A DNA stretch of 64,000 nucleotides, taken from positions 11,738 to 75,737 of the forward strand of contig JACPGP010000030.1 in the NCBI GenBank assembly GCA_016182425.1. Reading direction: 5' to 3'. Shown piece after piece: positions 31-27,182 of this stretch. The stretch comes from Candidatus Levyibacteriota bacterium (GTDB lineage: Bacteria; Patescibacteriota; Microgenomatia; Levybacterales; UBA12049). The position numbers and the translations under genes were made by a program. The notes beneath the pieces are model-generated. The model searched no databases. It saw nothing but the letters and a program-made list of their open reading frames with translations, and was not told the origin of the DNA. How positions within the stretch are numbered: the stretch's first letter is position 1; every line of letters starts with the position of its first letter.

Positions 31-441
31 TTAGTTCTTAAATACCACAACGTGGGTTTTGAGAAAGGTTGTATCAAATGTTTCTAAAAAACCCAATCTT
101 CCAAGTAAAGCAGGAACCTCATTTGTATCGAAAAAGGCAATCGGGACATCTCTTTCAAAGGGTCCAATTCTGGCTTTGATTTTTGATTTACAAAGATATA
201 TACTTTGTTCTCCTCCAATGCCAACCGTTGTGTCTTTCACGCAATCTTGTTCAAATGATATACCTAAATCTTTTGAGAGATACGCTGGCAAGATAGTAAA
301 ATCAGCTCCCGTATCAACTACCATCCATGTATCTGTCCAAATATTCTCTTTTGCAGACTTGAATGAAACTTTGGCTACTGGTCTTTTGACATTGCCAAAA
401 AAACTTTTCCCAACGTTCTCGAAGGAAAATTTTACATCCAT
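31..441 (-). CDS. retropepsin-like (clan AA) aspartic protease, copy 1
   Basis: VVDTGAD catalytic motif (D-T-G-A), GIGG flap-like motif and C-terminal LLGR motif typical of retropepsin fold. Paralogous to 25481..25906. Confidence 0.6.
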   Translation of the reverse strand: MDVKFSFENVGKSFFGNVKRPVAKVSFKSAKENIWTDTWMVVDTGADFTILPAYLSKDLGISFEQDCVKDTTVGIGGEQSIYLCKSKIKARIGPFERDVPIAFFDTNEVPALLGRLGFLETFDTTFLKTHVVVFKN

Positions 442-638
442 AAAATAAGTGAATGGGCTTTGGGGAGATAGGCTACTTCTGGTGTAACATGAGGATATTT
501 TTCCCTAATTTTTTTGAGGATTTCAGAAGCACCCTCTCCAGTTTTTGCGGTATACACACGTCCTGCTGCTAAAATGACATGTTTTCCTCGGTAACGAGGA
601 TTTTTAAATATGTCCATCATAGAGATTTTCGTTTTCAT
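432..638 (-). CDS. small protein (68 aa), conserved upstream partner of retropepsin-like protease
   Basis: Overlaps the downstream protease start by 10 nt. Paralog of 25897..26097 (KHVILAAGRVYTAKTGEGASEILKKI vs KWIAISSNKKAILTSGKSIKEIENKL). True start may be the second or third Met. Confidence 0.45.
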   Translation of the reverse strand: MKTKISMMDIFKNPRYRGKHVILAAGRVYTAKTGEGASEILKKIREKYPHVTPEVAYLPKAHSLILWM

Positions 639-16600: not shown

Positions 16601-17383
16601 GGAACTCAACTGACAATGCGGGTTCGTCATTTCGGAGGTGTGGTCATGTCGGATGTGACACAAGGACTGCCCAGGGTAGAAGAGCTTTTTGAAATGCGAA
16701 CGCCCAAGAATTTTTCTCCCATCTCTGAAATTACCGGGAAAATTACTATTGAAACAAGAGAGGACGGATATGTTATTAAAGTAAGAAACGTGCGCATCAA
16801 GCCGGTGGAGGAAAAAGAGTACTTTGTGCCATTGGCGGCAAATCTTCTTGTTTCCGATAATGAAGAGGTTATTGCCGGAACACCATTTGCCCAAGGATAT
16901 CTAGATCCAAAAGAGGTGCTCAAAGTGAAGGGGCTTACCTACACGCAGCGTCACATTATTGATGAGGCTCAAAAGGTATACGAATCTCAGGGCATTACCA
17001 TTGATGATAAACACTTTGAGGTAATTTTGCGCAAGATGTCAGACAAAATAATAGCTGAAACAATCGGAGATACCTCGTTTGTGCCGGGCGATTTTGTTAC
17101 TAAGACGCGATTTGAGGAAGTAAACGCTGAAGTAATTGCTCAGGGTGGAGAGCCGGCTACAGGAAGAAGAGTAATTTTGGGCGTTACGAAAGCATCGCTT
17201 TTTTCTGACTCGTGGCTTTCTGCAGCATCGTTTCAGGAAACCACTAAGGTGCTTACAGAAGCGGCGCTTGAGGGAAGGGAAGATAAGCTTTTAGGAATGA
17301 AGGAAAATGTTATTATCGGGCGTCTTATTCCTGTTGACTCCGAGAAAGTTGAAGTTGAAGGCCCGCCTCCTGTTGAGGTATAA
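13643..17383 (+). CDS. rpoC: DNA-directed RNA polymerase subunit beta'
   Basis: 1246 aa. Zn-finger [31 protein letters not shown] catalytic motif. Confidence 0.95.
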
Positions 17384-17393
17384 TACATATTCT

Positions 17394-17873
17394 ATGCCGA
17401 CATTATCACAGCTTGCCAAAAGAGGAAGAAAGAAAAAAGGGAAAAAAACCCGTTCCACCGCTTTGCGGCGCTTGTACAATGCTAAAGAGCGTAAATATAA
17501 AGCAATACTTTCGCCTCAAAAACGAGGGGTGGTAACTTTAGTTAAAACAATGACCCCAAAGAAACCAAACTCAGCTCTAAGAAAAGTAGCTAGAGTCAAG
17601 CTTTCAAATAGAATGGAGGTTACAGCCTACATTCAGGGGATAGGCCACTCGCTCTCAGAGCACGGCATTGTGCTGGTTCGTGGGGGCAGAGTTAAGGATC
17701 TTCCAGGAGTAAAATATCACATTGTGCGGGGAAAGTTTGACCTTTTGGGCGTGGAGAGTAGAAAAAGATCAAGAAGCAAATACGGGACAAAACGGGGAGG
17801 AGGCGGGCCATCGCCCAAGGTGGTAGCCGGAACGGCTGCCTCCCCAAACGTGGCCGTACCAGCAGCCCCTTAA
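17394..17873 (+). CDS. rpsL: 30S ribosomal protein S12 with Gly/Pro/Ala-rich C-terminal extension
   Basis: [12 protein letters not shown] start, conserved [10 protein letters not shown] and [13 protein letters not shown]. The longer upstream ORF overlapping rpoC is rejected. Confidence 0.9.
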
Positions 17874-17876
17874 CTT

Positions 17877-18350
17877 ATGAGGCATAAAAAGACAGAAAAA
17901 CGGGAAATATCTTTAGATCCGATATATAAGAATCGTTTGGTGGCAAAATTTGTCAATCGAATAATGCGGGATGGCAAGAAAGCAGTGGCAGAAAAAACCT
18001 TTTACCAAGCGCTTACTTTAATCGAAGGAAAGGGGCATAGTCCGCTGGATGTGTTTGAAAAAGCCCTGCAAATAGTTGCCCCTAAACAAGAGGTTAAAGC
18101 AAGGCGAGTGGGAGGAGCCAATTATCAAGTGCCCGCGGAAGTGCGAGGAGACAGAAAAGTATCGCTGGCAATTCGCTGGATAATCCAGGCCGCCAAAGAC
18201 AGACCAAGTACGCAGTTTCATACCTTCTCAGAAAAACTGGCAGCAGAACTTTTGGATGCCACCCAAAATCAAGGTGCAGCCATTAAAAAACGCGACACAG
18301 TGCATCGCATGGCCGAAGCCAACAAAGCCTTTTCCCACTTCCGTTGGTAA
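17877..18350 (+). CDS. rpsG: 30S ribosomal protein S7
   Basis: Conserved S7 sequence. Position follows rpsL. Confidence 0.9.
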   Translation: MRHKKTEKREISLDPIYKNRLVAKFVNRIMRDGKKAVAEKTFYQALTLIEGKGHSPLDVFEKALQIVAPKQEVKARRVGGANYQVPAEVRGDRKVSLAIRWIIQAAKDRPSTQFHTFSEKLAAELLDATQNQGAAIKKRDTVHRMAEANKAFSHFRW

Positions 18351-18358
18351 AAATCTTC

Positions 18359-18387
18359 TTGACAAGTTGTACAACATCTTGTACGAT
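18359..18387 (+). promoter_or_regulatory. sigma70-like promoter (TTGACA-17-TACGAT) with embedded TTGTAC direct repeats (operator-like) for antitoxin gene
   Basis: TTGACA at 18359-18364 and TACGAT at 18382-18387. TTGTAC at 18367-18372 and 18379-18384, and TTGTACAA palindrome. ATG at 18396. Confidence 0.45.
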
Positions 18388-18395
18388 ATAACCAT

Positions 18396-18638
18396 ATGAC
18401 TAATGTTGTTGCGATATCAGACGCTCGGGCGAATCTTCCAGAACTTGTAAACAAGGTACATAAAACCCTTCAGCGGTTTGTTATTACTATTAAAGGGCAG
18501 CCGAAAGCAACCTTAATCAGTGCTGAAGAACTTGAGTCTCTTGAAGAGACAGCAGAAATTCTTTCAATTCCTGGAGCAAAAGATAGTATTAAGCAGGGGT
18601 TACTGCAAGCAAAAAAAGGACAAGGGGTGTATACATAA
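18396..18638 (+). CDS. Phd/YefM family type II antitoxin (orphan, no adjacent toxin)
   Basis: ISDARANLPELVNKV ... ITIKGQPKATLISAEELESLEETAEILS matches the Phd/YefM fold signature. 80 aa. Confidence 0.7.
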   Translation: MTNVVAISDARANLPELVNKVHKTLQRFVITIKGQPKATLISAEELESLEETAEILSIPGAKDSIKQGLLQAKKGQGVYT

Positions 18639-18650
18639 TCTTGTTGAGAA

Positions 18651-19283
18651 TTATTCAACAGTTATTCCGAGGATCTTATCATTGATTTCGAGTTTTTGGA
18701 CAACATCCATGCCTTTTTTCACAATGCCAAAGTTTGTATATTGACCATTTAGCCAGACTGCTTCTTTTTTGGTAATAAAAAACTGGGCGTCGTTTTGGGT
18801 TTTGCCATCATTTCTACTTGCAGCGCCTATAGATCCAGCAACAAATGGTTTGTTGTTGAACTCAACAATCATATTGTTTCCTCCTGTACCATCTCCCCTT
18901 GGATCACCACCTTGCACTACCCAATCTTCTATTCTGTGAAAGGTAAGGTTGTTATAGAAGCCATTGGTTGATTTTGAAAGAAAATTATAGACAGTATTTG
19001 GCGCTTCCCGAGCAAAAAAAGAAAGGGTAATATCACCTTTGGTGGTTTTAATCGTTGCACTTCTTGTTGCCATATCTTCTATAATTTGCTGCGCACTAAT
19101 AGTTGCTACTGGGGGTTTTGGCGTAATTGTTGGTGTTGGTGGAATAGTTGGGGTTGGAGTTGGGACAGGTGGAGGAATGGTTGGGATAATAGTAGATGTT
19201 TTTTCCCCAGAAGAATTTGCTAAGAAAAGTACAGAGGAAAGGCCAATAGTTGCCAAAATAACAAAAAGAAAAATCTTCCCCAT
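18651..19283 (-). CDS. cyclophilin-type peptidyl-prolyl cis-trans isomerase with signal/TM anchor and Pro/Thr-rich linker
   Basis: Cyclophilin motifs FHRIEDWVVQGGDPRGDGTGG and NDAQFFIT. N-terminal hydrophobic segment, then a PPPVPTPTPTIPPTPTITPKPP linker. Start chosen at MGKIFLF. Confidence 0.75.
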   Translation of the reverse strand: MGKIFLFVILATIGLSSVLFLANSSGEKTSTIIPTIPPPVPTPTPTIPPTPTITPKPPVATISAQQIIEDMATRSATIKTTKGDITLSFFAREAPNTVYNFLSKSTNGFYNNLTFHRIEDWVVQGGDPRGDGTGGNNMIVEFNNKPFVAGSIGAASRNDGKTQNDAQFFITKKEAVWLNGQYTNFGIVKKGMDVVQKLEINDKILGITVE

Positions 19284-19362
19284 GTGCGCCACATTGTAGC
19301 ACATAAATAAAAAGTATGGTATACTATTTTGACAAATTCGGTAGCGAATTTTTTTATTATTT

Positions 19363-21480
19363 ATGGCTGACGAAAAATCAAGACTTACAGAATTAGATAA
19401 AATTAGAAACATCGGTATTATTGCTCACATTGATGCTGGAAAAACCACCACCACCGAGCGCATTTTGTACTACACAGGCAAGACCTACAAAATCGGCGAC
19501 ATTGACGAAGGAAATACTCAAATGGACTGGATGGAACAAGAGCGAGAGCGCGGTATTACTATTGTTTCTGCAGCTACAACCGCATTTTGGAAAGATTACA
19601 GAATCAATATTATCGATACTCCAGGACATGTTGATTTTACAGCAGAGGTTGAACGTTCGCTTCGAGTTTTGGATGGCGGCATCACAGTTTTAGATGCAGA
19701 AGAAGGTGTGCAGTCACAATCGGAAACTGTGTGGCGCCAAGCAGATAAATATAAAGTGCCTCGTCTTTGCTTTGTCAATAAAATGGATAAATTAGGAGCC
19801 GACTTTTTAGCAACTGTTAAAAGTATAGAAGATCGGCTTGGCGCAAACCCGGCCATTATGGTCTTACCAATTGGGCGTGAGCAAGATTTTAAGGGCATTT
19901 TTGATTTACTTACCATGAAAGCAATTGTCTGGACTGGTGAGGAACTAGGCGCAAAATTTACAGTAACTGATGATATTCCAGAGGGAATGGACGTCCAGAT
20001 TAAAGAATACAGAAACAAGCTGATTGAGAAAATTTCCGAGACCGACGATGTCTTGTTAGAAAAATATCTTTCTGGCACAGAACCAACTGTTGAAGAGCTC
20101 AAAATTGCGCTTCGGAAAGCTGTTATTGCCTATAAGCTCGTGCCAATTTTTGCAGGATCATCGCTTCGAAATAAAGGAGTACAACCGTTACTTGATGCAG
20201 TTGTTGATTATCTTCCTTCCCCTGTTGACCTTGCAGAAGTAAAGGGAATACATCCAAAAACAAATCAAGAGGAGGTAAGAAAACTTGTGCCGCAAGAACA
20301 CTTGGCAGGATTAGCATTTAAAATTCAAAATGATCCCCATGTGGGAAAACTGACGTATTTTCGAGTATATTCAGGAAAAATCGAGGCTGGATCGTATATT
20401 TATAACAGTACAAAGAATATCCGCGAACGTGTTGGCAGGCTGCTTTTAATGCATGCAAATCAAAGAGAAGAAATTAAAGAGGGATATGCCGGAGAAATTG
20501 TAGCAGTTGTTGGGTTAAAAGATACTACAACTGGAGATACCCTTTGTGATGAGGCAAAACCAATCGTTTTGGAAAAAATTTCCTTCCCAGATCCAGTTAT
20601 CTCTTTAGCAATTGAGCCAAAGACAAAGTCAGACCAAGAAAAACTTGGATATTCACTAAAGCGTTTAATGGATGAGGATCCAACCTTTCATGTCAAAACA
20701 AATCACGAGACAGGACAAACCATTATTTCTGGAGTTGGAGAGTTGCAGCTGGAGATTATGGTTGATCGGATGAAACGCGAATTTAATGTGTTGGCAAATG
20801 TTGGCGCTCCGCAAGTTGCTTACAAAGAAACAATCAGTAGAAATGCCGAAGCAGAAGGAAAGTATATTAGGCAATCCGGAGGACGGGGGCAGTATGGTCA
20901 CTGTTTCCTGCGCGTTGAACCAAAACCACGGGGTGAGGGTTTTGAATTTGTTGATGCAATTAAAGGCGGGGCGATTCCTGCCGAGTTTATTAGCTCTGTT
21001 GAAAAAGGCGTCAAAGAAACTATGGAGAATGGGATTTTGCTTGGCTATCCTATGGTTGATATGACAGTAACGCTTTACGATGGTAGTTTCCACGAAGTTG
21101 ACTCTTCTGATATTGCCTTTAAGATTGCTGCTAGTCAAGCCTTGCAGGCTGCCACCAAAAAAGCAGATATAACCCTTCTTGAGCCAATCATGAAGGTGGA
21201 GGTGACAACACCTTCTGAATTTATGGGTGATGTGATTGGTGATTTATCAGCCAAGCGGGCACAGATTTTAGGCACAGAAGAGCGGCATAAAGCAACGATT
21301 ATTTTAGCCATGGTACCACTGGCAGAACTTTCGGGTTACGCCACAACGCTGCGAAGCATGTCTCAGGGCAGAGCAAATTATTATATGGAGCCTTCCCACT
21401 ACGAAGAAGTGCCGCGAAATATTATTGCGGCCATGCTTGCTAAATCTACCTTCACCGGCCGCATCTCCGCGCAGCAATAA
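19363..21480 (+). CDS. fusA: elongation factor G
   Basis: [16 protein letters not shown]-domain motifs and full-length EF-G architecture (705 aa). Confidence 0.95.
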
Positions 21481-21497
21481 TATTTGAGAGAGTCAAA

Positions 21498-21506
21498 TGG
21501 TATAAT
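21498..21506 (+). promoter_or_regulatory. extended -10 element TGGTATAAT, 6 nt upstream of ATG (leaderless-type)
   Basis: TGnTATAAT at 21498-21506. ATG of the downstream gene at 21513. Confidence 0.35.
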
Positions 21507-21512
21507 GGGGGC

Positions 21513-22569
21513 ATGAAAGGGATCCTTTTAGGAGTTGTAGTTTTGGTTTTGGCCCTTGGTTTTGTTGTATTCAATAGCAATCTTAAAGAAGATAAAAAAT
21601 CAGCACCCGAAAATCCGGCTCCGACAAAAGCTCATGTACTATCTGCAACAAATAGCAAAGAAACAAAACTACTTTTTGTCCCATATTGGGGGCAGACGCA
21701 AGAGAGGATTCCAGACTCATTTGGGGAGGAGCTTGTTTATTTTGGTATTGCTCCAGGTAGTGATGGAATTGACAAAGAAGAACCAGGATACATGGGGTTG
21801 GCACGATTTGAGGCTATTTCAGAAGGGCGAGATACATTGTTAACACTTCGCATGATTGATCAGAATATGAGCTTCCCAATACTCAAAGACAAACCAAGAC
21901 AAAAAAAAAATAATTGACGAGTCAATTGCAATTGCAAAGCAATATAATTTTGAAGGAATAGTTTTGGATCTTGAAATTAGCAGTCTTCCTTTCGCCTCTG
22001 TTACTGAGCAGATGAATAGTTTTGTTGAGGAATTTTCTAAAGCAGCAAAAAAAGAAAATCTCACATTTTCCATGATGTTTTTCGGCGATACGTTTTTTAA
22101 ACTCCGGCCATACGATGTAACTGTATTACGGCAGTATCTAGATATTGTTTTTGTTATGGCATATGATTTTCATAAAGCAAATGCCAATCCAGGACCTAAT
22201 TTCCCTTTTCCTGATTTTACTCTTATGGTGCAAGATTTTTTAAATATCGTTCCCAAAGAAAAACTGGTGATTGTGTTTGGTATGTTTGGGTATGATTGGG
22301 AAATTGATGAACATAATAAATCTGTAGAACAAGCAAGGGCAGTAACACTAACTGTGGCAAAAAAGCAGTTTCTTGATCAATGCATTTTTCGAAACTGTAA
22401 AGTTTTAAGAGATGAAAAATCAAAGGAAACAACAGTGACGTATATTGATAAGAATGGAGACAAGCATATTGTCTGGTTTGAAGATGAAGAATCAGTAGCT
22501 AAAAAAACAGAATTTCTTAAAGAAAAAGGAATTAATAGTGTCGGCTTTTGGGCATACTCATACTTCTAA
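21513..22569 (+). pseudogene. glycoside hydrolase family 18-like protein interrupted by a frameshift at an A10 homopolymer
   Basis: ORF 21513..21917 (TM plus LLFVPYWG, LVYFGIAP, TLLTL strands) and ORF 21964..22569 (FEGIVLDLE resembling the DGIDIDWE catalytic block, MAYDF, GINSVGFWAYSY). They rejoin if the tract at 21901-21910 changes by one base. Confidence 0.5.
21901..21910. repeat. A10 homopolymeric tract inside GH18-like gene
   Basis: Read directly from the sequence. Marks the frame-switch point. Confidence 0.9.
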
Positions 22570-23286
22570 AACGTAGGGCGTTTTATGTTTATATTCATTT
22601 TCTTTGACTCTTTTGATCACTTTTTTGGCATTTATTAATTCTTTTTTAACTATTTCTTCAATAGGCAGTTTTTGCTCAAAATAATAATAAAGTACTTGGT
22701 CGGCTTCTTCATAGGTAAAGCCAAATTCTTCTTCATCAGTTTGGCCTTGCCATAGTCCTGCAGTTGGTGGTATATTGATAATTTCTTGCGGAACATTAAG
22801 ATATTTTGCAAGCTCATACACCTGCGTTTTATACAAGTGTTGTATTGGTTCAATATCAGATGCACTATCACCAAAACGAGTAAAATAGCCAAGGAGATGT
22901 TCGGACTTATTTTCTGTGCCAACCACCAGCGCTTTATTTTTTTTTGCCAAATCATATAAAAAGATCATTCGAACCCGTGCCATAATGTTTCCGATACGAA
23001 CATTGTCGTTTCGACTTACGCCAAGATTTTGTACACAAGCGTCAACAGCCTCTTTTATTGAAAGATCATAATTTTTTTTTGGAATGGCAACATAAGGTGA
23101 AAAATAGGCAAGAGAAATAGGAAAAATATTTTTTTCTGGGATAGCTCTTTTAAGAAGCAAAAAACTTACTGCTGAATCAATGCCGCCAGAAAGACCAATC
23201 ACGGCGTTTTTAATTTTTTGTTCTGCAAAAGTTTTTTTGAGAAAGGCTATAATTCGCTCTGTTTCTTTTTTAGGGTCGGTTTTCAT
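22558..23286 (-). CDS. nadE: ammonia-dependent NAD+ synthetase
   Basis: PP-loop GLSGGIDSAV. About 242 aa. Confidence 0.8.
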   Translation of the reverse strand: MKTDPKKETERIIAFLKKTFAEQKIKNAVIGLSGGIDSAVSFLLLKRAIPEKNIFPISLAYFSPYVAIPKKNYDLSIKEAVDACVQNLGVSRNDNVRIGNIMARVRMIFLYDLAKKNKALVVGTENKSEHLLGYFTRFGDSASDIEPIQHLYKTQVYELAKYLNVPQEIINIPPTAGLWQGQTDEEEFGFTYEEADQVLYYYFEQKLPIEEIVKKELINAKKVIKRVKENEYKHKTPYVLEV

Positions 23287-23849
23287 AGGTATAGTTTGTG
23301 TTTGGTAATATACGCCTCTACTTCTTTTGGCACAAGATGTGTGATAGGTAATTTCTTTTTTATTCTTTCGCGAATTATTGTTGAGGAGAGATTTGTTGTT
23401 ATAAGATCTTCTCCTGTAATTATCTCAAACCCTTTAGGAAGTTTTTTAGGTTTGGAAAATGGATCTCTGGGAAACACCAGAAATGTAGCTAGATTTGTTA
23501 AATTTTCTGTCTTTTCCCACCGAGAAAATTCCAAAAGTATATCACTCCCTACTATCCAATATATATCGTGATTAAACCTCTTTTTAATATCCCGGATGGT
23601 ATCAATGGCATAACTTACTCCTCCTCGCCTAAGTTCTGTATCAGAGACTTTCATGGAGTTATTTACAAAATATTTAAGCATCGAAAGTCTATCGGCACCT
23701 TTTGCTTCTATCGGCTTCCATTGGTGTTTATTTGCCGGAATAAACAAAACCTCTTTGATATCTGGTCTTTTTTCTAAAATTTGTTTGGCAACAAGCCAGT
23801 GCCCAATATGCGGAGGGTCAAACCTTCCCCCAAAAATAGCAATTCTCAT
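23283..23849 (-). CDS. nadD: nicotinate-nucleotide adenylyltransferase
   Basis: IFGGRFDPPHIGH (HxGH) motif. Four-nt overlap with nadE. Confidence 0.8.
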   Translation of the reverse strand: MRIAIFGGRFDPPHIGHWLVAKQILEKRPDIKEVLFIPANKHQWKPIEAKGADRLSMLKYFVNNSMKVSDTELRRGGVSYAIDTIRDIKKRFNHDIYWIVGSDILLEFSRWEKTENLTNLATFLVFPRDPFSKPKKLPKGFEIITGEDLITTNLSSTIIRERIKKKLPITHLVPKEVEAYITKHKLYL

Positions 23850-23881: not shown

Positions 23882-23910
23882 TTGACGGGCAAAGAAAAAT
23901 ATTGTAAGAT
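23882..23910 (+). promoter_or_regulatory. sigma70-like promoter for tuf (TTGACG-17-TAAGAT)
   Basis: TTGACG at 23882-23887 and TAAGAT at 23905-23910, 46 nt upstream of the tuf ATG. Confidence 0.5.
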
Positions 23911-23956
23911 TGTGTCTAACCTCACAAACTGAGGTTTATTATTTTCTTGCAATTTT

Positions 23957-25144
23957 ATGGCAGACGTTAAAAAGTTTGAGCGAACAAAACCCCACGTTAA
24001 TATTGGCACCATTGGTCATGTAGATCATGGAAAGACTACTCTTACTGCCGCTATCTGTACTGTCTTGGCAAAGTCAGGAAAAGCCCAAGCAAAAAAATAC
24101 GAGGACATAGATAATGCTCCAGAGGAAAAAGCACGAGGCGTCACCATTAACATTTCTCACCTTGAGTACGAAACAGACAAGAGACACTATGCGCACATTG
24201 ACGCTCCGGGACATGCCGATTATATTAAAAATATGATTACAGGAGCCGCCCAAATGGATGGCGCGATTTTAGTGGTATCGGCGCCTGATGGCCCCATGCC
24301 GCAAACGCGAGAGCACATTCTTTTAGCTCGTCAGGTTGGTGTTCCGGCAATTGTGGTGTTTCTTAATAAAGTTGATATGGTGGAAGACGCAGAACTTTTG
24401 GATTTGGTCGAAATGGAAGTCAGAGAACTTTTAACAAAATATCAATACCCGGGTAATGAAATACCAATCATTCGCGGTTCGGCGCTCAAAGCGCTCAATG
24501 GCGACGCGGAAGCAGAAAAACAGATTCTGCAACTTATGGAAACAGTCGACAGCTATATTCCCACCCCTCAAAGAGATATTGATAAGCCGTTTCTGATGCC
24601 CATAGAAGATGTCTTTTCTATTAAAGGACGGGGAACAGTAGTAACAGGAAGAGCAGAGAGAGGAAAGGTAAAAGTTAACGATACGATTGAAATTATTGGT
24701 ATCAGAGACACCAAACCAACCGTAGTTACAGGCGTGGAGATGTTTAGAAAACAGCTTGACGAGGCGCAAGCAGGTGATAATGTGGGATTGCTTCTGCGAG
24801 GTATCGAAAAGGCAGATGTGGAAAGAGGACAGGTTATTGCCAAGCCGGGTAGCATTACTCCTCACAAAGAGTTTGAGGCAGAAGTTTATATCTTAACCAA
24901 AGAAGAAGGCGGCCGCCACACACCATTTTTTACCGGATACAGGCCGCAATTTTATATTCGAACGACCGACGTTACAGCAGAGGTAGCTTTGCCAAAAGGC
25001 GTGGAAATGGTAATGCCGGGAGACAGTACAAAAATGACAGTAAAACTGATTGTTCCTATTGCCCTGGAAGAGGGACTTAGATTTGCGGTTAGAGAGGGCG
25101 GAAAGACAGTTGGAGCAGGAGTTATTAGCAAAATCATTGCTTAA
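23957..25144 (+). CDS. tuf: elongation factor Tu
   Basis: [46 protein letters not shown]. 395 aa. Confidence 0.95.
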
Positions 25145-25161
25145 GGTACATTAAAACCATA

Positions 25162-25470
25162 ATGCCAAGAGGAAGAATTAGAGTACGTTTAAAAAGCTAC
25201 GATGCTAGGGTTATCGACAACTGCTGTCAGCAGATTTTAGATACTGCTATCCGAACTGGCGCAAAGGTTGTTGGTCCAATTCCTCTACCAACAGAAAGAA
25301 GTGTCTACGCCATTAACAAATCTCCATTTATTGATAAAGATGCAAGGGATCACTTTGAAATTCGAGTGCACAAACGACTGATAGATATTATTTCCCCAAC
25401 CGATCGAACCATAGACCAATTAACCCACCTCGAACTACCCGCAGGTGTGGATGTGACAATTAAAATGTAA
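25162..25470 (+). CDS. rpsJ: 30S ribosomal protein S10
   Basis: IRVRLKSYDARVID...GPIPLPTER conserved S10 sequence. Confidence 0.9.
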   Translation: MPRGRIRVRLKSYDARVIDNCCQQILDTAIRTGAKVVGPIPLPTERSVYAINKSPFIDKDARDHFEIRVHKRLIDIISPTDRTIDQLTHLELPAGVDVTIKM

Positions 25471-25480
25471 AAATCGAAAT

Positions 25481-25906
25481 TCAATACTCAAGCGTAACTA
25501 TGTGGTCTTTTTCTCGAAACGTTATTCGCTCAAAATATTTAAAAAATCCTTCTCTACCAAGTAATGGAAATTGCTGTTCGTAACTAAAATCAGCTTCGGT
25601 TTCGAAATGGTAAACTCCGATATAAAGTTTCACTTTGTGCCGATATGCTTTTATGTCTTTTTTGCCTATGCCGTAATGTGTTACTTCTTTTCCTGATTTT
25701 ATTTTTAATCTAACCATTTCTCCCCATTCCGCAGGAAATAAATTCTTGTCTGCACCTGAATCAAGTAAGCAATTCACAGGAAATTTACTAAATATATGCT
25801 TATTACATAATCGTGTGGGAATAAGTGGTCGATAGATGTAATTTACTTTTCCAGTTTCTTGGTTTATGAAAACCTCGGGAGTATAGCTAAATTTAATTAC
25901 AGGCAT
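25481..25906 (-). CDS. retropepsin-like (clan AA) aspartic protease, copy 2
   Basis: LLDSGAD (D-S-G-A) catalytic motif, GIGK flap region and PLLGREGFF C-terminal motif. Paralog of 31..441. Confidence 0.6.
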   Translation of the reverse strand: MPVIKFSYTPEVFINQETGKVNYIYRPLIPTRLCNKHIFSKFPVNCLLDSGADKNLFPAEWGEMVRLKIKSGKEVTHYGIGKKDIKAYRHKVKLYIGVYHFETEADFSYEQQFPLLGREGFFKYFERITFREKDHIVTLEY

Positions 25907-26097
25907 AAAAGGGGCGAGAGGTACTTGTTTGCAGGTGGAACGAAAGAAATTATTGCATCCTTAACACGCAATTTAGTTAATTTGTTTTCGATCTCTTTTA
26001 TTGACTTGCCCGATGTAAGAATAGCTTTTTTATTACTAGATATTGCTATCCATTTATTTTGATTTTTCAAGAGATTTTTTGAATCAATTTTATTCAT
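25897..26097 (-). CDS. small protein (66 aa), upstream partner of retropepsin-like protease, copy 2
   Basis: Ten-nt overlap with the protease start. Paralog of 432..638. TATAAT 6 nt upstream of its ATG. Confidence 0.45.
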   Translation of the reverse strand: MNKIDSKNLLKNQNKWIAISSNKKAILTSGKSIKEIENKLTKLRVKDAIISFVPPANKYLSPLLCL

Positions 26098-26504
26098 ATG
26101 TATATTATAGCATACTATTTTTCCAGACTCCGCATGAAAAGCTATTTTATTGTGGTTTGAATAGAAAGGGACTAATTAAAAAAAGTACAAGAAGAAAAAA
26201 CGCTACTATTATGGTTGCCCAGTCGTGAGCTTTGGAAAAATAAAAACCAATAACTAGGGTAATAAATCCTGAAAAAAGGAAATAGAATTTATTTTGGATA
26301 ATTGATTTAATAAACACTGTAATTGCAGTATAGCATATTGATCAATTTCTTGGGAATAGAAGTTATCCTTAACAGTTTTTACCCAACCCCCGTATTGCAT
26401 TTCAGGCCATCTTTCTATATAATAAGAAAACTAAATCATGACATACCGATTGGAGGTTGATTTGGCTACATAGCGTATTCGTTTTAGGGTGTTTCCTAGA
26501 AGGA

Positions 26505-26535
26505 GCGACTGTATGTAGTCGCTTTTTTGGTTTTT
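26505..26535 (+). terminator. hairpin GCGACUguauguAGUCGC followed by U-tract immediately upstream of rplC start (terminator/attenuator-like)
   Basis: 6-bp GC-containing stem 26505-26510/26517-26522, then TTTTTTGGTTTTT at 26523-26535. ATG of rplC at 26538. Confidence 0.35.
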
Positions 26536-26537
26536 AT

Positions 26538-27182
26538 ATGCAAGCATTTATTGGACAAAAACAAGATCAATCACAGGCATTTTTGGAAGATGGGGCGAGG
26601 ATTCCAATTACTCGAATTTCGGCTCCCACACTTCCTGTGGTGGCAATTAAAACCAAGGAAAAAGATGGCTACTTTGCAATGCAACTTGGTCTTGGTATTA
26701 GAAAGCGAGAGGCAAAAGGAGAAAAAGCCCCTCGCTTTTTTCGTGAAGTTCGTGTTGCTGAGACAGAGGTAAAGCAACCAGGAGAAATGATAAACGCAAC
26801 AGATGTCTTTAAAATAGGAGATATTGTTGATGTTTCTGGTGTTTCTAAAGGGAAAGGATTTGCGGGGGTGGTAAAGCGCCACCATTTTAAAGGGGGGCCA
26901 AGGACCCATGGACAATCAGATAGAGAACGAGCTCCTGGTAGTATTGGACAAACGACCACCCCTGGACGTGTATACAAGGGAAAAAGAATGGCAGGAAGAA
27001 TGGGAGGAAAAAGCGCCACGGTCAGAAACTTAGAGGTGGTCGAAGTAACAGAGAACTCAGTTTTGGTAAAAGGACTTATTCCAGGAAATAAAGATAGTGT
27101 TGTCGTTATTAAAAAAGTTGGAGAAAAGAAGAAATTCGTACCGCTGTACAAAGAGGAGGTAAAAGAAGATGCCAGTAAGTAA
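26538..27182 (+). CDS. rplC: 50S ribosomal protein L3
   Basis: L3 conserved blocks (GVSKGKGFAGVVKRHHF, PGSIGQTTTPGRVYKGKRMAGRMG). The upstream extension containing the hairpin is rejected. Confidence 0.85.
   Translation: MQAFIGQKQDQSQAFLEDGARIPITRISAPTLPVVAIKTKEKDGYFAMQLGLGIRKREAKGEKAPRFFREVRVAETEVKQPGEMINATDVFKIGDIVDVSGVSKGKGFAGVVKRHHFKGGPRTHGQSDRERAPGSIGQTTTPGRVYKGKRMAGRMGGKSATVRNLEVVEVTENSVLVKGLIPGNKDSVVVIKKVGEKKKFVPLYKEEVKEDASK

Follow-up and report, generated by a model that had tools for sequence, protein, structure and literature searches.

In cyanobacteria and plastids the gene for ribosomal protein S10 goes with tuf, and the 'S10 operon' starts with L3. Archaeal uS10 is always unlinked from uL3-uL4-uL23 (PMC10833476). 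In well-studied bacteria the adjacency of rpsJ and rplC is the rule, as in the E. coli operon (PMC3616713), and the leader of that operon, which mediates attenuation by L4, is confined to Gammaproteobacteria (PMC3616713). Here we describe the rpsJ-rplC junction in a stretch of 64,000 nt from the metagenome-assembled genome of a Candidatus Levyibacteriota bacterium (Microgenomates; contig JACPGP010000030.1; the whole stretch is referred to as the window), where a minus-strand gene pair, encoding a retropepsin-fold protein and a small DUF5678-like partner, lies between rpsJ and a conserved leader of rplC. The explanation that accounts best for the junction, to which we give a probability of roughly two in three, combines a mobile two-gene module, a spacer and a native transcription attenuator, all placed at a transcription-unit boundary that tolerates insertions.

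The rpsJ stop and the rplC start are 1,067 nt apart, and the open reading frame (ORF) list and Pfam annotation confirm the observation of a preliminary description of this DNA that a minus-strand protease/partner pair separates the two genes by about 1.07 kb. The principal features of the locus, in window positions, are the following.

23957-25144, plus strand: tuf (EF-Tu), from the ORF list and the Pfam annotation of the identical gene in loci L001/L009
25162-25470, plus strand: rpsJ (S10), Pfam Ribosomal_S10, E 2.2e-33, starting 17 nt past tuf
25481-25906, minus strand: retropepsin-fold protein of 141 aa, from the ORF list, motifs, profile and AlphaFold model
25897-26097, minus strand: DUF5678-like partner of 66 aa, from a sub-threshold Pfam match and the contexts of homologous pairs
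25481-26114, minus strand: transferable module of 634 bp, delimited by blastn to the pair beside ftsZ in locus L092
26115-26392, no strand assigned: AT-rich spacer of 278 nt, 30.5% GC
26393-26537, plus strand: native rplC control region of 145 nt, conserved across relatives
26538-27182, plus strand: rplC (L3), Pfam Ribosomal_L3, E 8e-17, heading the rplC-rplD-rplW-rplB... cluster

We are nearly certain that the interval is composed of three parts, the module, the spacer and the control region, and that it represents a real lineage-specific insertion. The module and the 278-nt spacer occupy the slot between rpsJ and the control region and leave both transcription units intact. The stop codon of the protease gene lies 10 nt from that of rpsJ, tail to tail, and the 3' end of the partner gene overlaps the protease start by 10 nt; downstream, rplD overlaps the end of rplC. 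The AT-rich spacer had been described as extending over 26098-26537: its AT-richness holds for the spacer part, while the last 145 nt belong to the native control region of rplC.

The junction was compared across 80 species-representative Levybacteria loci around rplC, 71 of which also contain rpsJ. In these 71 species the gap between rpsJ and rplC has a median length of 236 nt and extremes of 116 and 4,481 nt; it exceeds 500 nt in 27 of them and 1,000 nt in 17, and the 1,067 nt of the window rank 55th. The protease pair was found near rplC in none of the 80 related loci. The cargo of the enlarged gaps is mostly unrelated, and comprises an N6 DNA methylase gene that includes a type I specificity domain, CAP, TPR and PMT_2 glycosyltransferase genes, together with histidine phosphatase, EamA, VTT and Cass2/GyrI-like genes and many unknowns (L024:2087-4153 and further gap ORFs in L013-L088), mostly co-oriented with the ribosomal genes. 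In L042 the gap is filled by two minus-strand genes (1438-2178) for a 141-aa toxin of the Gp49/HigB type and an 89-aa HTH_3 antitoxin; a genuine toxin-antitoxin-type pair thus seems to have inserted here independently. The tuf-rpsJ junction is less variable, with a gap above 300 nt in 8 of 69 loci.

It is very likely that the rpsJ-rplC junction is a pre-existing transcription-unit boundary and an insertion hot spot in the phylum. The boundary pre-exists the insertion because the promoter and leader of rplC are present in relatives without an insert; therefore the module is tolerated there, as are unrelated genes elsewhere. Upstream of the boundary, tuf has a putative promoter of its own about 60 nt before the gene (TTGACG-17-TGTAAGAT, ~23884-23912, by reading of the sequence). 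As in Archaea, a tuf-rpsJ unit stands apart from an rplC-rplD-rplW unit (PMC10833476); unlike in Archaea, the two units of Levybacteria usually stay adjacent, and their boundary holds variable cargo. The terminator scan detected no terminator-like site after rpsJ, nor one on either strand between rpsJ and the rplC control region. Convergent transcription is predicted at the junction, with read-through from tuf-rpsJ antisense to the pair and transcripts of the pair antisense to rpsJ.

The approximately 145 nt preceding rplC are conserved as DNA even between species that share only 55-68% identity in L3. The elements of this control region are arranged as follows.

26393-26423, plus strand: rplC promoter block TATTGCAT-N-TATATAAT, invariant in 20 aligned species
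26395-26400 and 26418-26423, plus strand: the parts of that block, a -35-like TTGCAT and a -10 TATAAT, separated by a 17-nt spacer
26438-26473, plus strand: upstream open reading frame (uORF) of 11 codons, MTYRLEVDLAT, with stop TAG, from the covariance-model leaders
26452-26456, plus strand: conserved Shine-Dalgarno (SD)-like GGAGG inside the uORF
26464-26472, plus strand: putative antiterminator 5' strand GGCTACATA, the uORF end including the first two bases of the stop codon, pairing with 26512-26520
26482-26501, plus strand: hairpin P1, TTTTAGGG/TCCTAGAA; judged by eye, its sequence varies among species and the variants seen still pair
26503-26535, plus strand: intrinsic-terminator hairpin and T-run, with GAGCGACT at 26503-26510, loop at 26511-26516 and AGTCGCTT at 26517-26524
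26512-26520, plus strand: putative antiterminator 3' strand TATGTAGTC, formed by the terminator loop and 3' arm

The promoter block pattern has a single match in the window. Among insert-free relatives (L016, L032, L047, L052) the block starts 4-20 nt past the rpsJ stop, and the whole intergenic region of these species therefore consists of promoter and leader. The uORF ATG lies 9-25 nt downstream of the -10 box, and the GC-rich terminator, located by the terminator scan and RNAalifold, ends 3 nt before the rplC ATG. A covariance model, R1, built from 20 sequences and applied with a threshold of E<1e-4, finds the leader in 44 of the 80 loci, and every match within the 800 kb lies immediately before rplC. 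All 44 leaders contain an in-frame uORF with an ATG start. Among the 40 distinct sequences the uORF has 11 codons in 31 and 9, 12, 13 or 22 in the others, so that its indels are whole codons; 30 of the sequences end it with TAG and 10 with TAA. The GGAGG persists as a nucleotide motif although the frame in which it is read differs (LEV, RRV, QEV), and is therefore an RNA-level signal. We hold with high confidence that a leader composed of a uORF and a terminator exists upstream of rplC.

Two other types of leader were observed in loci missed by model R1. In the second clade (L015, L018, L026, L031, L033, L039, L043, L070, L076; about 120 nt upstream of rplC) the leader includes TATAGTATAAT, a 6-codon uORF (MEVxxx*) ending in AGCCTAG or AGCCTAA and a terminator of the form GGTAGCC...GGCTACC. 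In a third group (L045, L049, L053, L055, L072) the promoter reads TACAAT, the uORF begins with MIQ... and the hairpin contains GGTGGCC. Rfam 15 returned no relevant family for the whole window, for positions 25100-26800, or for the plus strand at E<=5, and the literature searched on the S10 operon of the candidate phyla radiation (CPR) and on rplC leader peptides yielded nothing describing the leader, which appears to be new and undescribed. Two other interpretations of the leader were considered and rejected. A 3-codon mini-ORF driven by the SD-like motif (TTG-GCT-ACA-TAG) disagrees with the alignment, where the TTG is not conserved while the upstream ATG and the 11-codon length are. An in-frame N-terminal extension of L3 from the TTG at 26457 is contradicted by indels that are not multiples of three and by compensatory hairpin changes between species.

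The leader alignment may accommodate two mutually exclusive structures. The terminator helix has 98.4% of cells paired and four compensated pairs; for the candidate antiterminator the paired fraction of cells is 85-91%, whereas slid controls give 25-45%, and three pairs are compensated. The minimum free energy (MFE) structure of the free RNA is the antiterminator form for the leader of the window and contains the antiterminator in 17 of 39 leaders. When the uORF end is masked as by a ribosome footprint, 38 of the 39 leaders fold into the terminator. In the second clade the uORF end is complementary to TAGGCT in its own terminator, and among the ten leaders with a called uORF most have a duplex whose stability exceeds that of shuffled controls by more than two standard deviations.

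These structures suggest a mode of control in which transcripts from the rplC promoter, joined by read-through from the terminator-less tuf-rpsJ unit, would arrive at the leader. A ribosome finishing the uORF would cover the antiterminator strand, the terminator would form, and transcription of the rplC operon would be attenuated; with ribosomes scarce or slow, the antiterminator would form and permit read-through into the operon. The outcome would be a negative feedback of translation capacity on ribosomal-protein synthesis. We put the chance that this direction and mechanism of attenuation are correct slightly below even. The leader resembles the trp, his, pheST and pyrBI attenuators in its short uORF, in its proposed mutually exclusive antiterminator and terminator helices, and in a uORF stop codon that falls within the putative antiterminator strand, where a ribosome at termination would tip the balance towards the terminator. 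It differs from them in having no run of regulatory codons, in controlling a ribosomal-protein operon, in its near-leaderless uORF (TATAAT 9-25 nt from the ATG) and in its internal SD-like GGAGG. The E. coli S10 leader is likewise about 100-170 nt long, carries a hairpin upstream of the terminator hairpin and lies just before an rplD-containing operon (PMC3616713). Unlike it, the leader described here sits before rplC rather than rpsJ and shows no sequence or Rfam similarity; its uORF end overlaps the antiterminator strand, and sensing of the ribosome rather than of L4 is proposed.

The minus-strand pair is best understood from its larger member. The 141-aa protein (NCBI locus tag HYV39_03615) carries the motifs DSGA (49-52), GIG (79-81) and LLGRE (115-119), and D49, G51, G79-I80-G81 and G117-R118 are invariant over 31 homologues in a 31-sequence alignment. 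A profile from the 31 sequences, compared with the PDB, matches only retropepsin-fold chains, namely Ddi1 (3e-4) and the proteases of feline immunodeficiency virus (FIV), human T-lymphotropic virus (HTLV) and equine infectious anaemia virus (EIAV). The AlphaFold model has a predicted local distance difference test score (pLDDT) of 94.7, and its top Foldseek matches in the PDB are Rickettsia APRc (5c9f, 2.9e-5) and the EIAV, HIV and FIV proteases. By motif and fold the protein is a putative retropepsin-fold (clan AA) aspartic protease. It shares with Asp_protease_2 (PF13650), the catalytic domain of Rickettsia APRc and the RVP domain of Ddi1 the D[ST]GA active-site motif, the GIG flap-like motif, the hh-G-R-[DE] motif, a monomer of ~100-140 aa and the retropepsin beta-barrel; as in retropepsins, homodimerization is presumably needed for activity. 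Unlike these proteases, it scores below the Pfam gathering threshold, has no membrane or UBL/UBA domains, and is obligately paired with a small DUF5678-like gene. Its family comprises 4,034 cluster representatives at 50% identity, nearly all of them stand-alone proteins of ~140 aa.

The partner protein reaches 18.8 bits against Pfam DUF5678, under the cut-off of 23.2, and NCBIfam contains no match for either the protease or the partner. Its AlphaFold model (pLDDT 81) has an alpha-beta-beta-alpha-beta arrangement. A profile search with the partner returned no match, and none of the ribbon-helix-helix (RHH), helix-turn-helix (HTH), AbrB or Phd-type folds of type II antitoxins was recovered. A putative promoter of the pair is placed by reading of the sequence:

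26104-26112, minus strand: extended -10 box TGCTATAAT, ending 6 nt before the partner ATG

Comparable -10 boxes stand just upstream of the partner genes in L092, L093, L098 and L102, and the messenger of the pair would accordingly be leaderless or nearly so. A programmed -1 frameshift fusing partner and protease in a Gag-Pro-like manner was rejected, since a slippery heptamer is lacking and homologues overlap by 10, 11 or 13 nt or leave a 3-nt gap, with frames that differ accordingly.

Homologous pairs were found in eight further genomic contexts in relatives, with identities of 55-76%. A partner of 62-66 aa lies directly upstream of the protease in all eight, and thus in nine of nine with the window. 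The neighbours of the pairs are ftsZ; AhpC and nth-rpoB; AhpC and Peptidase_S51; RNase J and FtsK; VTT and LexA; a methyltransferase and an aminotransferase; peptide deformylase (def); and one more site. These eight sites are all mutually different, and rpsJ-rplC is not among them. DNA homology between the window and the pair in L092 amounts to 75% and is bounded exactly by positions 25481 and 26114 (blastn). From these boundaries and contexts, the module appears to be mobile as a self-contained two-gene unit between intergenic sites near housekeeping genes. It was also observed that in 6 of the 9 contexts, the window included, a housekeeping gene and the pair stand tail to tail at a distance of 0-25 nt (L092, L098, L100, L103 and 25470-25481 in the window, for example; the genes are ftsZ, LexA, def and rpsJ), which suggests that the pairs have a preferred insertion geometry.

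The window contains a second, paralogous pair at its start, here called copy 1, the pair at the junction being copy 2.

31-441, minus strand: copy 1 protease of 136 aa, Asp_protease_2, 33.8 bits, passing the Pfam cut-off
432-638, minus strand: copy 1 partner of 68 aa, DUF5678-like, from ORF and annotation

The copy 1 protease, found by a search for the DTGA/DSGA motif, matches the PADLOC defence-candidate models PDC-M08B (9e-7) and PDC-M52B (7e-6). Neither partner matches any PADLOC model, so that no A component of PDC-M08/PDC-M52 was recognized beside the protease; the likeness of the pair to these candidates is through the copy 1 protease. The proteases of copies 1 and 2 are 29% identical, and tblastn and blastn revealed no recent, near-identical duplicate cassette in the window. 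The naming of the junction pair as a second copy thus stands insofar as another pair exists at 31-638; the two are paralogues and not recent copies.

We picture the origin of the locus as the landing of a 66-aa protein gene and an overlapping retropepsin gene 10 nt past the rpsJ stop, under their own near-leaderless promoter. The pair would behave as a selfish unit resembling a toxin-antitoxin or defence system, in which the small protein would control the dimeric protease. Such a nature of the pair is a guess, and a doubtful one. Like type II toxin-antitoxin systems, it is a compact operon of two overlapping genes, of which the smaller comes first, with a promoter of its own, and it occurs in divergent multiple copies per genome and at different sites in related genomes. 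Unlike them, it has no known toxin fold, and its partner has no recognizable DNA-binding or antitoxin fold. Literature searches on DUF5678 and on retropepsins with toxin-antitoxin systems returned nothing describing the pair.

Several explanations compete with the one preferred here, one being that the arrangement is an assembly chimera or, alternatively, an ancient fixed feature of the lineage. Seven independent Logan contigs (loci L002-L008) do terminate at the same base, window ~26533, within the leader T-run. The shared break point falls in the leader core, which is 93-96% identical among several Levybacteria species (~81% over 151 nt in L016) and, judging by this identity, probably serves as a repeat shared between species at which metagenome assembly graphs break shortly before rplC. 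An independent Logan contig of 7,954 nt from SRR4343429, covering tuf-rpsJ-pair-rplC-rplD through rplW, crosses the whole region with 99.987% identity to the window; the sole difference is a 1-nt indel outside the rpsJ-rplC interval. With this contig, and with the pair located at rpsJ-rplC in no related species and at mutually different places in the eight other contexts, a chimera or an ancient fixture is extremely improbable, and the preliminary description, which had named both as possible objections, is upheld in treating the junction as a genuine lineage-specific insertion. Its larger claim, that a unique insertion broke a universal junction, forced a new promoter on rplC and abolished control by the S10 leader, is largely refuted and very improbable. 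The absence of the pair from the junction in all related species examined, together with the rpsJ-rplC adjacency of well-studied bacteria, speaks for such a view. The two genes were nonetheless expected to be contiguous in relatives and the site to be very unusual, and neither expectation agrees with a junction that is enlarged by unrelated cargo in many Levybacteria; uS10 is, moreover, unlinked from uL3 throughout Archaea. As had been supposed, rplC has its own promoter, but the need for it was not created by the insert, promoter and leader being conserved in insert-free relatives. Loss of S10-leader control is irrelevant to a gene that follows tuf by 17 nt without a leader, in a lineage outside the Gammaproteobacteria to which the L4 leader is restricted (PMC3616713). 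Taken by itself, the insertion is nothing out of the ordinary for so permissive a boundary. A different objection concerns the leader: its hairpin and T-run could be a mere terminator of tuf-rpsJ or of upstream cargo, or part of a ribosomal-protein leader bound by L4 or L3, with an incidental uORF. Transcripts from upstream must end somewhere, as rpsJ has no terminator; the E. coli S10 attenuator also places a hairpin upstream of a terminator hairpin near the first gene (PMC3616713), a candidate L4 leader lies upstream of rplC in Archaeoglobi (PMC7247131), and the covariation of the antiterminator is modest. We nevertheless consider this alternative quite unlikely. The conserved promoter lies ~80 nt upstream of the hairpin and the T-run is separated from the rplC start by only 3-45 nt, and therefore rplC transcripts must cross the terminator. 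All 44 leaders preserve the frame, length and stop (TAG/TAA) of the uORF, its indels always being multiples of three. In two clades that diverge in sequence, the terminator loop is conserved and complements the uORF end. Attenuation and protein binding are not exclusive, and binding of L4 or L3 could be layered on top of the attenuator.

As for the pair, it might instead be a housekeeping system of maturation or quality control, consisting of a protease and its substrate, pro-peptide or chaperone, with a position set by neutral drift. The lack of an antitoxin-like DNA-binding fold in the partner and of a PADLOC match for copy 2 would fit such a role, as would a large family of uniform stand-alone ~140-aa proteins and the occurrence of the pairs among housekeeping genes, outside obvious defence islands. 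It is harder to reconcile with a site that differs in every genome examined, with at least two divergent copies within 64 kb, each compact and overlapping, with a promoter of the pair's own, with the matches of the copy 1 protease to PDC-M08B and PDC-M52B, and with the true HigB/HigA-like pair that L042 carries in this gap, oriented as the pair of the window is. We regard the housekeeping role as unlikely, slightly more so than the selfish one. The combination of a mobile module, a spacer and a native attenuator has weaknesses of its own, and the following results weigh against it. On the side of the module, the copy 2 protease scores 15.8 bits against Pfam Asp_protease_2, under the cut-off of 24.3, and matches no PADLOC model; the partner model has no PDB match at E<0.7 and shows no DNA-binding or known antitoxin fold; and the literature searched does not report a toxin of the retropepsin type. 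The module ends (25471-25481 and 26114-26130) show chance-level AT-rich repeat matches and no terminal repeats or target duplications, none of the pair contexts contains a recombinase gene, and the hallmarks of insertion sequences or miniature inverted-repeat transposable elements were not found to account for the mobility. On the side of the leader, the MFE structure of the free RNA shows the terminator in 20 of the 39 leaders, the modest covariation of the antiterminator leaves its support mostly to conservation, and a sub-clade with 5-nt loops permits no more than 4-5 bp of it. For the GGAGG, one possibility is that it holds the terminating ribosome through contact with the anti-SD sequence. 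Finally, promoters and start site are predicted here, as are termination and the direction in which regulation would act.

More broadly, we tentatively propose that Levybacteria, and perhaps other CPR bacteria, place a ribosome-sensing attenuator, with a near-leaderless uORF of 6-11 codons and an SD-like 'hold', on the rplC cluster, next to a phylum-wide landing pad whose cargo includes the DUF5678/retropepsin module, maybe a protease-based toxin-antitoxin or defence system. If this is true, the rpsJ-rplC junction is not inviolable, being a transcription-unit boundary and an insertion hot spot across a CPR phylum, which matters for synteny-based binning and for the concatenation of ribosomal-protein markers. 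An uncatalogued conserved cis-regulatory element, made of uORF, antiterminator and terminator, would stand ahead of some 25 ribosomal genes in unculturable organisms, and would provide a testable model for the tuning of ribosome synthesis in reduced genomes without known ribosomal-protein leaders. The feedback on ribosome synthesis would be protein-independent, a mode undescribed for any ribosomal-protein operon. Similarly, a large retropepsin-fold family of ~4,000 clusters, each with a DUF5678-like gene, would act as a mobile two-gene module.

The nucleotide composition of the interval differs from that of its surroundings. The pair has a GC content of 32.6% and the spacer one of 30.5%, against 42.6-44.6% in rplC and tuf and a window mean of 39.8%. 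The contrast with the ribosomal backbone is thus real, as had been pointed out, yet the pair falls within the range of other non-ribosomal genes of the window, several ordinary ones having 30.8-34.3% GC, and the ribosomal and RNA-polymerase genes are the GC-rich outliers. The contrast is no evidence of foreign origin and reflects the GC-rich ribosomal genes.

The spacer (26115-26392) shows no homology to relatives in blastn and tblastx searches. It contains, on the minus strand, an ORF of 56 aa (26147-26317) with a GTG start that resembles two transmembrane helices, and one of 48 aa (26254-26400) that the Logan gene caller predicts in some contigs and whose last 8 nt extend beyond the spacer into the promoter block. 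Neither has a family match, and both may be chance ORFs on a T-rich strand.

Further variation is seen on both sides of the junction. Downstream, matches to rplC and rplD in relatives (L012-L091) lie a median of ~300 nt apart by crude tblastn, in comparison with overlapping genes in the window; these distances may represent C-terminal extensions of L3 or real spacers, and no conclusion is drawn from them. Upstream, the 1-nt indel between the window and the Logan contig affects a GH18 glycosyl-hydrolase, which is split into two ORFs in the window (21513-21917 and 21964-22569) and forms one 351-aa gene in the Logan contig; the split reflects either a pseudogene in this strain or a homopolymer miscalled in one assembly or the other. 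The str cluster of the window (17307-23849) is broken as well. A minus-strand cyclophilin peptidyl-prolyl isomerase (18651-19412) lies between rpsG and fusA, and fusA is separated from tuf by the GH18 gene together with minus-strand nadE and nadD (21513-23849).

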